This document shows, piece after piece, positions 10,575 through 26,036 of a DNA stretch of 64,000 nucleotides (positions within the stretch are counted from its first letter, which is position 1; every line of letters starts with the position of its first letter). The translations under genes and the position numbers were made by a program. Location of the stretch: NCBI GenBank assembly GCA_965208325.1, contig OZ242326.1:2080001-2144000 (forward strand), given 5' to 3'. Source of the stretch: Candidatus Poribacteria bacterium (GTDB lineage Bacteria > Poribacteria > WGA-4E > PCPOR2b). The notes under the pieces were generated by a model. The model did no database searches and was not told the origin of the DNA. It was given only the letters and a program-made list of their open reading frames with translations.

Positions 10575-10958
10575 ATGAACAATGGCTTAAGCTTTAGAAT
10601 ATTCATACTACTCGTATTAAATGTGTTATTAACAGTTGGCGGGCAACTGCTGCTCAAGCGAGGGATGATGGCTGTGGGCCCGGTTCAGTCCCTGCGAGAC
10701 GCAATTCCCAAGCTCGTCCAAGCCTTATTCAATCCATTCGTCATTGGCGGAATCTCGGTGTACGGATTTACAATGATGATTTGGCTCATCATATTATCAC
10801 GCGTTAAATTGAGTGTTGCCTACCCAATGATTAGCCTCGGCTATGTTATGTCAATTCTGCTGTCGTGGTTATTTCTTAAAGAATCCGTGCCTAAGATTCG
10901 AATCATCGGGGCGGTTGTAATCTGTATCGGTGTTTATCTGGTTGCCCGCAGCGACTGA
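10575..10958 (+). CDS. SMR/EamA-type small membrane protein (ArnE/ArnF-like flippase)
   Basis: Four TM helices; GQLLLKRG, LSRVKLSVAYP, LKESV. Confidence 0.8.
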   Translation: MNNGLSFRIFILLVLNVLLTVGGQLLLKRGMMAVGPVQSLRDAIPKLVQALFNPFVIGGISVYGFTMMIWLIILSRVKLSVAYPMISLGYVMSILLSWLFLKESVPKIRIIGAVVICIGVYLVARSD

Positions 10959-10974: not shown

Positions 10975-11691
10975 GTGGCAGAGATGAGCACCGTGAAGCG
11001 ATCGTACCTAGCGATGCTTTTATCAATTGTTCCAGGAATGGGACAACTCTATTTACGTAAACCGCTGAAGGGTTTGATTCTATTTCTGGGAGTACTCTCT
11101 GCGGGTGCGGTAATTTACATCAGTTCGCTTCCTGTAAATGATTGGCGCGACTTGGTACGCTTCGATGGACTTGAAACATGGTGGAAATCCCGCCAGGCTG
11201 GCATAGAGTCGCGGGAGGATGCTGGAAAGTCCGAACCTACCGCCGTGAAAGCAAAAGAATATCATGAGCGCGATTACCATTTGTACACATTTGACGACAA
11301 CTTCCTGTTTCGCATTGACGCGCAGTTCCAACGGCACTTAGACAGAAAAAGCATCTCGGAAAAATTGCTGCGAATATTTAAGGACAATAACATCCTGCTC
11401 TCTAAGGAAGCCATTGTTTCTATAAAGAAACCCAACACCCGATGGATTATCTCGGACGGAAATCGCACATACGCGGTCAGGAAAGTAGATGGGCAGTTAA
11501 ACATTTTTGCTGTTAAGAATTTAATGTATCGCCCATCCTGGAAGTTAAAAATTAGCGGCTTTATTCAAGGCATTGCCTTCTGGATCTATGCGGTCTTTGA
11601 TAGTTGGAAGGGACGGCGAGGATTCAATCGGCGGGCACTTAAGAAAAAATTGAAGAAAACTGAACGAGATTCAGTAGAAGAGAGTGAATAA
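10975..11691 (+). CDS. Hypothetical membrane protein containing an inserted ~70-aa domain
   Basis: LLSIVPGMGQLY...KG and FWIYAVFDSW ends typical of a small membrane family. GGAGG RBS before GTG 10975. Insert at about 11302-11508. Confidence 0.7.
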   Translation: MAEMSTVKRSYLAMLLSIVPGMGQLYLRKPLKGLILFLGVLSAGAVIYISSLPVNDWRDLVRFDGLETWWKSRQAGIESREDAGKSEPTAVKAKEYHERDYHLYTFDDNFLFRIDAQFQRHLDRKSISEKLLRIFKDNNILLSKEAIVSIKKPNTRWIISDGNRTYAVRKVDGQLNIFAVKNLMYRPSWKLKISGFIQGIAFWIYAVFDSWKGRRGFNRRALKKKLKKTERDSVEESE

Positions 11692-21740: not shown

Positions 21741-24700
21741 CTAACCCGCACGGTGATACCCATGCCCTTCACCGGTAATCTGGTATAGGGCATCCGCTGT
21801 CCAGAAATGCACCTCCGGATCGTCATCGCCCAAAGCCGATTCCAGCACAGATATAGCACCTTGATGCTTTGACGCGGCAAGTCCCTTGATGATATCTAAC
21901 CTCAAATTCTTGGTCGTCTGATTCACAGGAAGCGATTTCAGTTTCTCAATCAGCGCGGTAACGGCGGCGTCCGTCCCTATTTTTCCAAGTGCAATTGCAG
22001 CATCACGGCGAATCTCTTCATGATTGGTTTCAGTGTTGAAGACATCAATAAGATCTGGCACAGTGGAGGCGTCTGCAAATTCACCCACACCTTGCGTGGC
22101 TCCGCGCCGCACATCTTTATCCGCTTCTGTTTCACCTTTCATTATTTTCACTATTTCATCTTGAAGTTCTCGAAGCTTGCCCTCACCAATGCCCCGCGCT
22201 GTGGACTGGCGGATTTCTTTTTTCTTGTCATTCAGCAGTTCTCTAAGCTTCGATACGGCTTCCGGTGTTTTGGACTTTCCAAGTGCATTAGCAGCTGCGG
22301 CCTTAATTGGCCAACTTTCAGGTTTACTATTCTCGATCCGCTCAATCATCTTGTTCGCAACGAAGGGCGGCAATTGAAACGGTTTGGAGGCACTGACGAA
22401 AGCCTCAAATACAGGGTTGTGGGTAAATGTATCCGGCGTTATGGTCACTCCATATTCTGTGTCGTCAACGAGCCGCCTACTAATTGATTCAGCAGCGCGG
22501 TTATCCCCAATTGCCGCGAGCGCGTCGGCGGCATAAATACGGGTATCCGATTCCAGGCTTCTGTCTTCGAGAATAGCAATCAATTCCGTCACGGCTTCGC
22601 GACTATTGAGTTTGCCTAGTGCCGAAATGGCGCTCTTGTGGACAGCTCCGGTTTCTGCTCTAAAAATTCGAAGGATTGCCGCTGCCGAACTGCTGTCGCC
22701 AATCAATCCGAGCGCGGTTGCACACGCCGTCCGCACCGATGTATCTTCTAGAGGGTTATGGAGGATTTCAACTAGTTTATTGACAGCATTTGCACCTTTG
22801 ATGGCGCCCAATGCCGTTACAGCATGCAACCGAACTTCGGCGTTTTCATCGTCTAACGCAGCCAGGAGCGGGGTTGAAGCACGCTCGTCAAGCAACTTCG
22901 CCAATGACGCGGCTGCCGCTGCTCGAATTGACTTTGACTCATTCGTATCTTCAAGCACCGCAGTTAAGTCTGCAACAGCATTTCGATCTTTGAGTTTTCC
23001 AAGCGCAGCCACTGCCTCCTTGCGAACAAGGTAACTCTGATTTGTCATCGCCTCGCGTATCGCAGCCATTATGTTTTGATGCAGCGCGGGCGTCATTGTT
23101 ACTTTGTCGGACGTTCCCCGGATTTCTCCGATTGTATGTACAACTGCCCAGCGAATCCATTCTTCATCATCGTCGACGGATTTCAGCGTATCAAGCAGCA
23201 AATTGATTGTAGACGCATTGCCGTCTTTGACGAGTGAAGCAATGACTTCATTCATAACGGATTGGACTTCGTGCTTTTCTTCAAAGGGCCCTAAGCCTTT
23301 TTTCAACACATCGACCAACCCTCCGTCCGCTAACTCTTGCTTTAGTTCACGCAAAGCGATGGCTGCTTGTTTACGAGTTTTTTCAAACTTGTCCCTTTTG
23401 AGCGATGTTAGCAGAGGAGCGACCACCTTCTCACCTTTGATTTTGTTTAACGCGGCCGCGGCCTCTTGCCGCACAATGCCGTGCTCATCATTCTTGAGCG
23501 CATCAATCAAGTGGGAGATGACGGATTCTCCGTTGATGTCTCCTAAAGCTAGCGCGGCACTCCGGCGCACCGCTGCACGCTCGTCGTCATTCAGGGCGTC
23601 AAATATCGCATCCAATACTTGGTCACCTTGGGTGTAGACGTTCAGATTATCACCGACTTTCCGGAAATGGTACCGCTGCTGGTTCTCTTTATCGGTAACA
23701 AACCAAATTTCGCCTGCTCGGTCGACTACAATAGTTGGATTTTGGGAAAGCGCGATTTCTTCTTCTCCGAGTTCATGCAGTAAATTTTCCGGAATCTTGC
23801 CACTGTTCAGATCTGTGACATACTCGGCTAATTGAGTGCTAAAAAACAGTAATTCTCCTTTTATTTTGCCTAGTGAGATGGCTGCCTCGCTTCGCACAAG
23901 ACCGGGAATCGGCTTTAATTCTCCCCACTTTTGATAATCAGGTTGGGGATATTCAGGCGTCCATTGAATACCCAAGGAATCAACAGCAGCACCCAAAGCC
24001 TCAAGCGTTTTGTGTTGCCTTTTCATGTGCCGTTGGAAATCCTTGACGTCTTCGTAGCGTGTTGACAAAACCCACAAAAGCGCAGGCACAGTTTCTGGTG
24101 CTTTAATTTCTCCCAAAACTGCCACGGCTTCTTTCCGAATAATTTCACTCGTCTCATCGCTAAACATCAACTGCATCATTGGCTGAACGGCTTCCATTGC
24201 CTTGAGTTGACTTAATGCGGTAAGCGCCGCCCGCCTTATCGTCTCACGTCCACGTTTGTCCATCGCCATTGCGACGAGTTTGTTAATTGCCCGTTGACTC
24301 TTTATGTTGATATTTCCGAGTGCGACAGCAGCGTTAGTTGCGGTTGTATCATCTAAATCAAGGGCGTCAGTGAGTGCATCAACAGCGATGTTATTACTAC
24401 CAGGGGTTTTCATTGTGCCAATGGCTTTAGCGGCTGCCGTTTTGACTTCCTTTCTCGGATCGTTCTTAAGAGATTCGGTGAGGGAGTTTAACGTTCGCAA
24501 ATCTCCAATCGTGTCCATGACCTCGGCAGTCCGAATCCTGATAATATCCCTGGAAACTTTTAGGGTACCCGCGTCTTTTCTGACAGAATATGTTCCTTTT
24601 TTGTGATGTTTACCTTTATCCGTTATCAACCATTTGCTGTCTTCTTCCTCAAGAATAATGGATACATTTTCAGATAAGGTGAATCCGTTATTTTCCAACA

Positions 24701-26036
24701 CCCGTTTAAAATTCTCCGAGACGTATCCGTTGTTTAAATCGTTCTGGAACTCCGTGCTTATAATTAATGACGGATAACGCAGCGCTTGAATTAGATTGGG
24801 AACTGCAACTTCCTTCATTACAGCCAACGCACTAGCCACGTCCCCATGCAAATCATCGTCTTCAAAAAGATTGATTAGCCGTGCAACGGCCTCCTTAGCT
24901 TTCAGGGCGCCAAGGGTTTGAATGGCTGCGGCTTGGGTGCTGATTCGGCGGTTTTTCAGCCGGTCTGTATCAATATAGACATTTGCAATGTACTGATACT
25001 CATTCCTGAAATTAGGTTCGTCATCTTCCTCTGGAATTACGTTCTTAGCCCCTGAGTCCAATACTGCAATCAAAGGATTAATTGCTAACTGTCCAATCTG
25101 AATCAGTGCGGTCATGGCGCTGTTTTTGACGTGTTCATTTGCATCTGCGAGCAACCGGACGAGATCGACTATGGAATCTTCTGCCTTCAGCATACCGAGC
25201 AGCTTTGCGGCTAACATGCGCACTTGCGCTACGTTAGTTCTTGTGGCAAGCCGCAATGCGGGAACAATGCTTTGCTGGTCTTTTAACCCCTCTAGCGCTA
25301 CAATTGCCTCGTACAACACATCTGGCGATTCATCCTTTTTCTTCAGAACGGATTCTAGCTCGCGGATGAGCCGCGGATCTTTCAAGTCTCCTAGGTGCTT
25401 TATAGCCTGTTTTCTGATGGCGGCGTCGGGATTTTGAATTTCATTGACCAACAGATTGTAAACCAGCTCTTCATCATTAAGTTGCTGAATTAGCGCGGCT
25501 GATGCCTGACGATGCTTTGGATGAAAGCAATTTTCCGCCTCCAGCAACGCCGTGATGACAACGGAATTTGGTTGACTCGCTAAGGTTGAAAGGAGTTGTG
25601 AGTTTTGCTCGGCGGCTTCCGCGAGCGCGTTTGCAAAGGCACCAACAATCGAGTTTCGAGATCGAACAAGCCATTCGAGCTGGTCCAACTCATCCGAGTC
25701 TGGATCCTCGAGCCTCTCCGATGCTTCAATCTCCTCCTTGAGAGGCTGTAAATTGCCGAGAATTTTCTGTATGGCAGTGTGCCAGTCAACCGCTTTCGTT
25801 TTCCAACCCGTGCCTGAGGTTGCACGCAACTGGAGTAACACATGCAGTGATTGAGCTTCGAGGTGATTTGGTTTGTTCGACAGTACGGTTTGTATCGCTG
25901 TTTGAGCAACGGTATAATTTGCATCATCCATCGCCTCCCTCGCTTCTAGCAAGTCTACATCCTCTTTTTCGCCACACCCAGCGAGTAAACCGATAATTAA
26001 ACCAAAACTGATAAACAGGAGAATCCTGCGTTTCAT
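21741..26036 (-). CDS. Large HEAT/PBS-lyase repeat lipoprotein (1431 aa) with two inserted ~70-aa domains
   Basis: Lipobox LAGC; many VR..AA.ALG.I.d..av..L...L.D repeats; inserts at about 23631-23855 and 24552-24770. Confidence 0.9.
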   Translation of the reverse strand: MKRRILLFISFGLIIGLLAGCGEKEDVDLLEAREAMDDANYTVAQTAIQTVLSNKPNHLEAQSLHVLLQLRATSGTGWKTKAVDWHTAIQKILGNLQPLKEEIEASERLEDPDSDELDQLEWLVRSRNSIVGAFANALAEAAEQNSQLLSTLASQPNSVVITALLEAENCFHPKHRQASAALIQQLNDEELVYNLLVNEIQNPDAAIRKQAIKHLGDLKDPRLIRELESVLKKKDESPDVLYEAIVALEGLKDQQSIVPALRLATRTNVAQVRMLAAKLLGMLKAEDSIVDLVRLLADANEHVKNSAMTALIQIGQLAINPLIAVLDSGAKNVIPEEDDEPNFRNEYQYIANVYIDTDRLKNRRISTQAAAIQTLGALKAKEAVARLINLFEDDDLHGDVASALAVMKEVAVPNLIQALRYPSLIISTEFQNDLNNGYVSENFKRVLENNGFTLSENVSIILEEEDSKWLITDKGKHHKKGTYSVRKDAGTLKVSRDIIRIRTAEVMDTIGDLRTLNSLTESLKNDPRKEVKTAAAKAIGTMKTPGSNNIAVDALTDALDLDDTTATNAAVALGNINIKSQRAINKLVAMAMDKRGRETIRRAALTALSQLKAMEAVQPMMQLMFSDETSEIIRKEAVAVLGEIKAPETVPALLWVLSTRYEDVKDFQRHMKRQHKTLEALGAAVDSLGIQWTPEYPQPDYQKWGELKPIPGLVRSEAAISLGKIKGELLFFSTQLAEYVTDLNSGKIPENLLHELGEEEIALSQNPTIVVDRAGEIWFVTDKENQQRYHFRKVGDNLNVYTQGDQVLDAIFDALNDDERAAVRRSAALALGDINGESVISHLIDALKNDEHGIVRQEAAAALNKIKGEKVVAPLLTSLKRDKFEKTRKQAAIALRELKQELADGGLVDVLKKGLGPFEEKHEVQSVMNEVIASLVKDGNASTINLLLDTLKSVDDDEEWIRWAVVHTIGEIRGTSDKVTMTPALHQNIMAAIREAMTNQSYLVRKEAVAALGKLKDRNAVADLTAVLEDTNESKSIRAAAAASLAKLLDERASTPLLAALDDENAEVRLHAVTALGAIKGANAVNKLVEILHNPLEDTSVRTACATALGLIGDSSSAAAILRIFRAETGAVHKSAISALGKLNSREAVTELIAILEDRSLESDTRIYAADALAAIGDNRAAESISRRLVDDTEYGVTITPDTFTHNPVFEAFVSASKPFQLPPFVANKMIERIENSKPESWPIKAAAANALGKSKTPEAVSKLRELLNDKKKEIRQSTARGIGEGKLRELQDEIVKIMKGETEADKDVRRGATQGVGEFADASTVPDLIDVFNTETNHEEIRRDAAIALGKIGTDAAVTALIEKLKSLPVNQTTKNLRLDIIKGLAASKHQGAISVLESALGDDDPEVHFWTADALYQITGEGHGYHRAG

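Follow-up and report, generated by a model that had tools for sequence, protein, structure and literature searches.

How two segments of the same kind came to lie in frame within the HEAT repeats of one lipoprotein is the question raised by a 64,000-nucleotide stretch of the Candidatus Poribacteria assembly GCA_965208325.1 (contig OZ242326.1, positions 2,080,001 to 2,144,000 of the forward strand), referred to here as the window. The host gene lies on the minus strand at 21741..26036 and comprises an open reading frame (ORF) of 1431 amino acids (aa) with an N-terminal signal peptide and a lipoprotein-type ...LLAGC motif, which we take to be a lipobox. Pfam HEAT families score above threshold along the protein, HEAT_2 with an E-value of 2.2e-106 and 348.8 bits (cut-off 27.7) over 15 stretches, HEAT_PBS with an E-value of 2.4e-57 and 185.2 bits. 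An initial annotation of the window had described the two segments as copies of one inserted domain, with a third copy elsewhere, and had considered a mobile element. Based on the data presented in the following, it seems secure that the segments belong to an unnamed family that has been nested repeatedly, in frame, in unrelated proteins, and that filled and empty alleles of its sites both exist in living lineages.

The limits of both inserts were determined by comparison with insert-free orthologs. Insert A occupies 24552..24770 on the minus strand (aa 423-495, 73 aa; i-E = 3.8e-21 with a profile hidden Markov model, HMM), which is identical to the interruption given in the initial annotation. 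Insert B, at 23628..23858 on the same strand (aa 727-803, 77 aa; i-E = 2e-19), is likewise real and turned out one codon wider on each side than the 23631-23855 first given. Orthologs of other genera read ...ALxxP|RDxxRI... and ...LGKIK|GDxV... at the two sites with nothing in between, so that the HEAT spacing is indeed restored when the segments are removed. The third copy is present as claimed in an unrelated, small membrane protein at 11.3 kb (10984..11691, plus strand; 235 aa from the ATG at 10984, the ORF being open also from a GTG at 10930). There it covers approximately 11299..11514 on the plus strand (aa ~106-177), these limits being taken from the ends of split ortholog matches. The N-terminus of this second host is weakly DUF5683-like (E = 4.7e-4, below the curated cut-off), and a hydropathy scan scored one hydrophobic segment ahead of the insert. 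In pairwise BLASTP comparisons the three window copies showed 26-31% identity with E-values of 7e-10, 5e-12 and 3e-8.

As proposed in the initial annotation, an HMM of the three copies was used to search the window genome, a single contig of 4.71 Mb, as six-frame ORFs. The profile recovered further copies, and after iteration 24 copies in 20 proteins were obtained (E <= 1e-4), with E-values of the family HMM as low as 1e-28. By Pfam, the hosts include sigma-54, AspRS, RseP (M50 with PDZ domains), a TamB/AsmA protein, CtaA, O-antigen ligase, an M23 peptidase, a HAMP histidine kinase, UPF0182 (two copies), a DsbH-like thioredoxin and DUF4861; the remaining ones are a TPR protein, an ECF sigma factor with propeller repeats (three copies) and five family-less proteins. 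A crude hydropathy scan detected a signal or membrane segment in 16 of the 20 hosts and none in AspRS, sigma-54, the TPR protein and the ECF sigma factor.

The family was detected in all 41 related genomes, with 6-41 matches per genome, and in 117 of 121 genomes of a phylum-wide Poribacteria sample. The four match-free genomes (89-95% complete) all belong to families f5 and f6 of the same class, and a fifth genome of f5 showed one weak copy. In another class of the phylum, two families contain 11-15 copies, and the hosts determined in two genomes of that class comprise signal peptidase I, BamA, an S41 protease, MFS and ABC permeases, trigger factor, SecA, ComEC, a glycosyltransferase, a RAMP protein and, weakly, RNA polymerase beta-prime. 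The host sets of the two classes mostly differ. RseP is the sole host shared at the same site, which may represent the oldest shared insertion, and the RseP proteins of the domain-free families f5 and f6 contain no copy. One RseP of the other class, L174 (G042:C303), has two copies, the second of which is located at the site of the single copy in the RseP of the window genome (L011). Two copies were also observed in L163 (G042:C1), a 792-aa protein with a match to the CRISPR-associated RAMP superfamily.

A library of 1.84 billion proteins yielded 2,628 matching clusters (E <= 1e-3). Among the 150 best of these, 287 of 309 full-length copies were internal to the protein, and at least two copies (2-6 in many proteins) were present in 138 clusters, the list favouring multi-copy proteins; the 119 clusters scanned with Pfam revealed more than 40 host architectures. 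One library cluster bears a label that assigns it to a metagenome-assembled genome of Deltaproteobacteria. Outside the phylum, none of five assorted control genomes contained the domain, which was found in 1 of 101 genomes of another phylum. Both copies of that genome (L197 and L198, G182:C77) are nested in baseplate proteins of a contractile-injection or phage-tail-like locus comprising the families Baseplate_J, Tail_P2_I, Phage_GPD and CIS_tube. Hosts of the types Baseplate_J, Tail_P2_I and TssG (contractile injection and type VI secretion systems) occur among the library clusters as well, and the copies of the injection locus are a possible clue to the origin of the domain. Due to the copies outside the phylum, the family is not strictly confined to Poribacteria, where it is hugely enriched. 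Of the lineage-specific domain in loops of exported or membrane proteins that had been proposed initially, one part is thus retained, namely a single unnamed domain situated in frame in loops and inter-repeat turns and found in 117 of 121 Poribacteria genomes versus 1 of 101 and 0 of 5 others. The restriction to exported or membrane proteins was too narrow and has to be given up, as AspRS, sigma-54, the ECF sigma factor and the TPR protein show neither signal nor membrane segment and SecA and trigger factor are cytoplasmic.

Some candidate copies were not accepted. Three weak viral tblastn loci (38% over 47 residues) were obtained, none of which passes the family HMM at E <= 1, and therefore no viral copy was found. 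Additional weak copies in the genomes G001 and G002 of the window genus were not counted as new insertions, since they lie in accessory WD40-like or other genes without clear ortholog in the window genome. In the G002 ortholog of a 572-aa host (G002:C1:3352468-3352674; host L013 in the window genome), the domain match contains one in-frame TAG, which could be due to a broken gene, a sequencing error or recoding.

That the segments were inserted is most directly visible where filled and empty alleles can be compared. The insert of AspRS comprises residues 87-159 and corresponds to a site between residues 81 and 82 of the E. coli AspRS 1c0a. It is missing with an exact junction in other phyla, in three other Poribacteria families and in six genera of the own family. 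The sigma-54 insert is order-wide: it was crossed in one piece by the match in 34 of 36 genomes, the match being split within the insert in the other two, and outside the order it was skipped, leaving two adjacent pieces, in 4 of 5 genomes. Clean junctions relative to empty orthologs were determined for AspRS, HEAT A, HEAT B, signal peptidase, S41 protease, ABC permease and trigger factor, the empty orthologs of the last four, which are hosts in the other class, being those of the window genome. At eight sites, the inserted piece extends beyond the domain by about 0-5 residues on the N-terminal and 0-2 on the C-terminal side; the unit itself measures about 69-81 aa. Accordingly, the empty alleles with exact junctions that the initial annotation had predicted exist and are clean to the residue. 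The target duplications that it had suggested looking for were absent from the codon-level junctions of A and B compared to empty orthologs.

These junctions also bear on the opposite explanation, by which the segments would be ancestral to their hosts and lost elsewhere, or would resemble each other by chance. For hosts without an outgroup this is a bare possibility, and nothing further speaks in its favour, whereas the segment is missing from AspRS in other phyla and three further Poribacteria families and from sigma-54 outside the order. Chance similarity is contradicted by pairwise E-values down to 5e-12 and E-values of the family HMM down to 1e-28. We therefore assign this explanation next to no probability, and for AspRS, sigma-54, HEAT A, HEAT B and the 11.3-kb host it is refuted.

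Concerning the identity of the domain, the earlier statement that no named family could be recognised was corroborated by searches of Pfam, NCBIfam, PHROGs and PDB sequences. With the two HEAT copies, Pfam gave a single weak sub-threshold match at E <= 1. With 22 copies at E <= 10, each weak Pfam-A family was matched by only 1 of 22, and no family covered the domain. NCBIfam yielded one match (E = 0.088) and nothing above threshold, PHROGs gave no match for five copies, the best E-value of a PDB sequence profile search was 0.071, and the ESM Atlas contained no usable match for the domain. A match to MOSC_N (E = 3.8e-6) was obtained on one five-copy protein; since it was not seen on single copies, it was treated as spurious. 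Literature searches, with supplements lying outside their scope, returned nothing on this domain, and the same holds true for term searches of the accessible parts of PMC3909097 and PMC8546597.

A structure prediction followed by a Foldseek search had also been proposed, and the two steps differed in their outcome. AlphaFold2, run for the domain alone on the 22-copy alignment, gave a confident model (predicted local distance difference test, pLDDT, of 90.7; predicted template-modelling score of 0.77) with the topology strand, helix, helix and four strands. According to this prediction, the domain of about 70 residues is an autonomously folding unit. In a model of the N-terminal 231 residues of AspRS, the insert was predicted with the same topology (pLDDT 87-94) between two strands of the OB-fold, the OB part being modelled with moderate quality only (mean pLDDT 65.9). 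The Foldseek comparison of the predicted model with the PDB provided no clear match (best E = 0.43), a structure search of BFVD gave a best E of 0.12, and VIA-align against 48,161 chains resulted in a best Z of 4.8, with none of at least 5. Since only weak matches were obtained, neither a known nor a new fold is claimed. KA1 domains recur among the weak VIA-align rows (5iri_B with Z 4.8, a root-mean-square deviation of 2.7 A and 60 aligned residues; 5wi2_B with Z 4.1) and resemble the domain in having two helices on a small antiparallel sheet, two layers and a similar size. However, no chain reaches Z 5, such Z values are common by chance, a sequence signal is missing, and the order of the secondary-structure elements in KA1 presumably differs from that of the domain.

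The conservation of single residues was determined from 358 copies of the 150 best library clusters. Conservation was highest at L1 (93%), F2 (98%), L12, L21, F25, L32, W47 (98%), I49, Y58, L67 and Y70 (95%). All positions conserved to at least 90% are hydrophobic or aromatic, and the best-conserved polar residues are D51 (80%) and S33 (76%). The first two (L-F) and the last two ([IV]-Y) residues are among the best-kept parts of the unit. Due to this strong conservation of both ends, the first and last strands can be read as clasping each other, which would bring the N- and C-termini close together and would suit an insertion into loops.

The conserved ends are also informative with regard to an intein-like element that would be spliced from the mature proteins. 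Like inteins, the unit is a selfish-looking segment, in frame inside conserved and often essential proteins, of which only precise removal would be harmless. Splicing requires Cys, Ser or Thr at the first residue and after the intein as well as a terminal His-Asn, and known mini-inteins are much longer than 70 residues. In contrast, the unit of about 70 residues begins with Leu (93%) and ends with Tyr (95%) in the 358 copies and is followed by Gly, Arg, Asn or Asp at the sites examined, none of which is a splicing nucleophile. No Pfam intein or Hint family was matched, and the unit has neither a Hint fold nor an endonuclease. It is expected to stay in the mature protein, and the intein-like explanation is close to refuted.

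The history of the single sites was derived from their distribution among the related genomes, in which g1 denotes the window genus. The 11.3-kb copy is present in 22 of the 41 genomes (g1, g4, g5 and g6) and absent from 19 (genera g2, g3 and g7 and families f2, f3 and f4). As its carriers form one supported clade, ((g4,(g6,g5)),g1), with a support of 95/95 in the HEAT gene tree, the distribution fits a single gain on this clade. Insert A is the youngest of the three window copies and was found only in g1 (4 of 4 genomes) and in g7, another genus of the same family. Insert B occurs in g1, g4 and family f3 and is absent from g2, g3, g5, g6, g7 and f2. When the inserts were left out of the HEAT tree, a minimum of two changes was required for A and of three for B, and for the whole gene the approximately unbiased (AU) test rejects one carrier clade in both cases (p = 0.0078 for A and 0.0056 for B). 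When 110 residues on each side of insert B were used, the carrier clade was not rejected (AU p = 0.59), and the carriers of B share the residues immediately downstream of the insert.

A similar situation was observed for AspRS. The carriers of its insert are compatible with one clade across family borders (AU p = 0.51), and the AspRS gene of the window genus is placed with family f3 (support 85/86) instead of the other genera of its own family (L019-L028 versus L049, L050 and L191-L194). This grouping suggests that a housekeeping gene was transferred or recombined between lineages of the Poribacteria. Repeated precise excision was considered for the patchy AspRS pattern and set aside in favour of one gain followed by allele transfer, given the carrier clade with p = 0.51. 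In a tree of the copies themselves, grouping follows the sites (support 99 for HEAT-B, 88 for HEAT-A and 88 for AspRS) with a star-like arrangement between them, and the nearest paralog of insert A is the copy in the 572-aa protein L013 (support 88). As copies of the same site cluster together irrespective of the genome, every site goes back to a single old event, with ages that vary from site to site. Altogether, we infer that insert-bearing alleles moved between lineages by recombination, which leaves insert A partly unexplained.

Two further variations were noticed in the HEAT protein. In the ortholog L118 (G009:C258), the insert A of g7 contains two short internal tandem duplications (RWLIT repeated; DKTK/ITDKTK) and still scores as a full domain. 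An indel-rich loop (...IRGTSDKVTMTPALHQN...) at about aa 1000-1020, which has no relation to the domain, occurs in a long form in g1 and g4 and in a shorter one in f3, and is missing from the rest.

The initial annotation had drawn a parallel to Rickettsia palindromic elements (RPEs). In a review, these are described as repeats of about 150 bp situated in frame in unrelated genes (PMC10969869). The common feature is that a single unit has entered the reading frames of many unrelated genes within one lineage, housekeeping genes often among them, with hosts that tolerate the added peptide. The RPEs, however, are recognised as DNA repeats with palindromic structure, and the Poribacteria unit is not palindromic as DNA. 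Furthermore, its copies are alike as proteins only (26-37% identity), have no non-coding counterparts and form a predicted globular domain. The parallel thus fails in every DNA-level feature tested and is limited to the in-frame insertion in many unrelated genes.

More generally, a mobile DNA element, be it a miniature inverted-repeat transposable element, an RPE or a homing cassette, would have to be coding-compatible throughout and served by an enzyme in trans, and would now be extinct or very slow. This would account for discrete units of near-constant length (~69-81 aa) with sharp ends at eight independent sites, for unit ends that coincide with the best-conserved positions, for many independent insertions over a long time with lineage-specific host sets, and for patchy distributions in conflict with the host gene tree. 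The DNA itself points in the other direction. No hairpin potential was found in six 150-nt halves of the window copies (z = +1.29, -0.38, +0.76, +1.79, +0.19 and +0.60 compared to shuffles). Comparison of the A and B junctions with empty orthologs, codon by codon, revealed neither inverted nor direct terminal repeats, and no repeat brackets an insert, although such marks could decay with divergence; target duplications are missing there as described above. An imperfect inverted repeat of 14 nt (24616-24629 / 24764-24777, 86% complementary), with one arm over the upstream junction of insert A and the other inside, is short and probably due to chance.

Non-coding or degenerate copies were not found either: nhmmer recovers the 24 coding copies, and all other matches have E >= 0.02. 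Comparison of 22 copies by blastn gave short, weak matches only. The three codon positions carry 0.81, 1.01 and 0.39 bits, and synonymous codons are mixed at conserved residues, those of the ends included; conservation is at the protein level only. Recent copies were not found in the window genome, its genus or a relative with 39 copies, and nothing points to current mobility. Among 31 copies examined in this relative, the best pair located at different genes shows 45% aa identity, and three closer copies (up to 56%) sit in neighbouring paralogous genes. The set of sites is stable within the genus. Contigs from four sponge-metagenome studies span both inserts (23400-25000) and contain no joint, in line with inserts that are fixed in the populations; as contigs drop rare variants, excised forms of low frequency may have escaped. 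No RNA run was among the sequencing runs listed for the region. None of the 119 scanned host clusters has a transposase family in the same protein. Since palindromes, terminal repeats, non-coding copies and recent copies are all missing, the unit is not an element of the Rickettsia type. Together with the unconstrained third positions, and with allele transfer largely accounting for the patchy cases, this makes a mobile DNA element of any kind improbable.

The base composition does not indicate a foreign origin. The copy at 24.6 kb is more AT-rich than its host gene, as noticed initially (37.7% guanine plus cytosine, GC, compared to 48.8% in the remaining gene), and the GC content lies below that of the host in 19 of 22 copies. 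At third codon positions, the difference (49.3% versus 51.8% in the host, lower in 15 of 22 copies) is not significant (Wilcoxon p = 0.08). Consequently, the skew mostly reflects the amino-acid composition and is no signature of foreign DNA, and an origin outside the lineage was not deduced from the low GC.

At the protein level, the inserts are under purifying selection that is relaxed about twofold compared to their hosts. Within the genus, the ratio of non-synonymous to synonymous substitution rates (dN/dS) is 0.30-0.56 for insert A and 0.18-0.25 for insert B, versus 0.13-0.18 for the HEAT host, and 0.16-0.39 for the AspRS insert, versus 0.09-0.31 for the AspRS host. Such selection would fit a recruited interaction module, which is the main rival to the explanation favoured below and which we consider possible, though less probable. 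By this account, a shared partner or ligand, or self-binding, was repeatedly favoured, for example for tethering in a Poribacteria-specific structure or for the binding of surface or host molecules. The conservation throughout the phylum, a dN/dS well below 1 in every insert tested, the retention in essential proteins, the many proteins with 2-6 copies (at least two in 138 of the 150 best clusters, a list that favours multi-copy proteins), the baseplate hosts with Tail_P2_I, Baseplate_J and TssG, and the signal or membrane segment in 16 of the 20 hosts of the window genome by the crude hydropathy scan are all in line with it. On the other hand, the hosts lie on both sides of the membrane, with AspRS, sigma-54, SecA and trigger factor on the one side and the PDZ region of RseP, BamA, lipoproteins and sensor loops on the other, so that one common ligand is hard to name. 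In addition, the positions conserved to at least 90% are core hydrophobics, relatives do well without the insert (AspRS in six genera of the same family; HEAT A and B missing in most genera), and the PDB, VIA-align, Pfam and BFVD searches connected the unit with no known binding domain, either by structure or by sequence.

Since the hosts span both cytoplasm and envelope, the conserved positions look structural and close relatives manage without individual inserts, we favour a tolerated, insertion-competent passenger domain, to which we would give about even odds. In this case, a coding cassette would have entered unrelated proteins repeatedly and in frame as the Poribacteria evolved, at permissive surface loops and turns between repeats, each insertion being a rare, single and datable event that added at most a few residues on either side. 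The copy would be translated as part of the host protein. As the latter would suffer from an insert that fails to fold, purifying selection would preserve the copy's ability to do so. Inheritance would be vertical, with occasional passage, together with flanking host-gene sequence, between related lineages by homologous recombination. Being structurally inert and hard to delete cleanly, the passenger would persist without a single biochemical job common to all hosts.

Several points weigh against this explanation. The 110-residue flanks of insert A still reject a single carrier clade (AU p = 0.017), so that one has to assume two exact losses, the transfer of a very short tract or another gain at the same site. 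All trees are trees of single genes and not of species, and the trait served to define the groups tested once the free tree was known. The adjacency of the termini and the lack of a conserved surface patch would follow from the pattern of conserved residues. Dozens of reuses with sharp ends fit poorly with random illegitimate recombination plus selection, which hints at a dedicated mechanism or a real benefit. Long purifying selection and the retention in the essential AspRS and sigma-54 would also fit a function. Finally, the copies outside the phylum are located in baseplate proteins of contractile-injection systems, and extra domains in such baseplates are usually binders.

A selfish element acting at the protein level is a further reading. 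It would be a self-folding cassette, possibly derived from phage-tail-like injection systems, that colonised loops of essential and envelope proteins throughout the phylum and was kept since only an exact deletion is harmless. We regard this as rather unlikely; if true, it would be the first globular domain that transposes in frame like a mobile unit while lacking both splicing and any DNA element that can be recognised.

The tolerated passenger domain can be compared with promiscuous small domains that nest in loops of housekeeping proteins, such as the sandwich-barrel hybrid motifs in RNA polymerase subunits and the zinc ribbons. In both cases a compact domain is located inside other folds at lineage-specific positions. 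In contrast to those domains, however, a single family is concerned here, with 6-41 matches per genome in one phylum, more than 40 architectures and a presence that varies among close genera.

To our knowledge, exon shuffling is nonexistent in bacteria, and the nesting of a domain within an essential enzyme is generally regarded as a rare, isolated accident. A single small domain has here entered more than 40 protein architectures of one phylum, including AspRS, sigma-54, SecA, trigger factor, signal peptidase and BamA. With datable events and living filled and empty alleles, the origin of bacterial domain insertions becomes directly testable, and so do the questions of what makes a fold insertion-competent and whether a protein module can persist as a passenger. 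The domain represents a natural, pre-validated insertable scaffold for protein engineering, its sites would be a useful set of phylogenetic markers for Poribacteria, and the family is an obvious gap in the domain databases. For the sponge-associated Poribacteria, the occurrence of this domain in dozens of unrelated hosts, essential housekeeping enzymes among them, represents an unusual route to domain gain.

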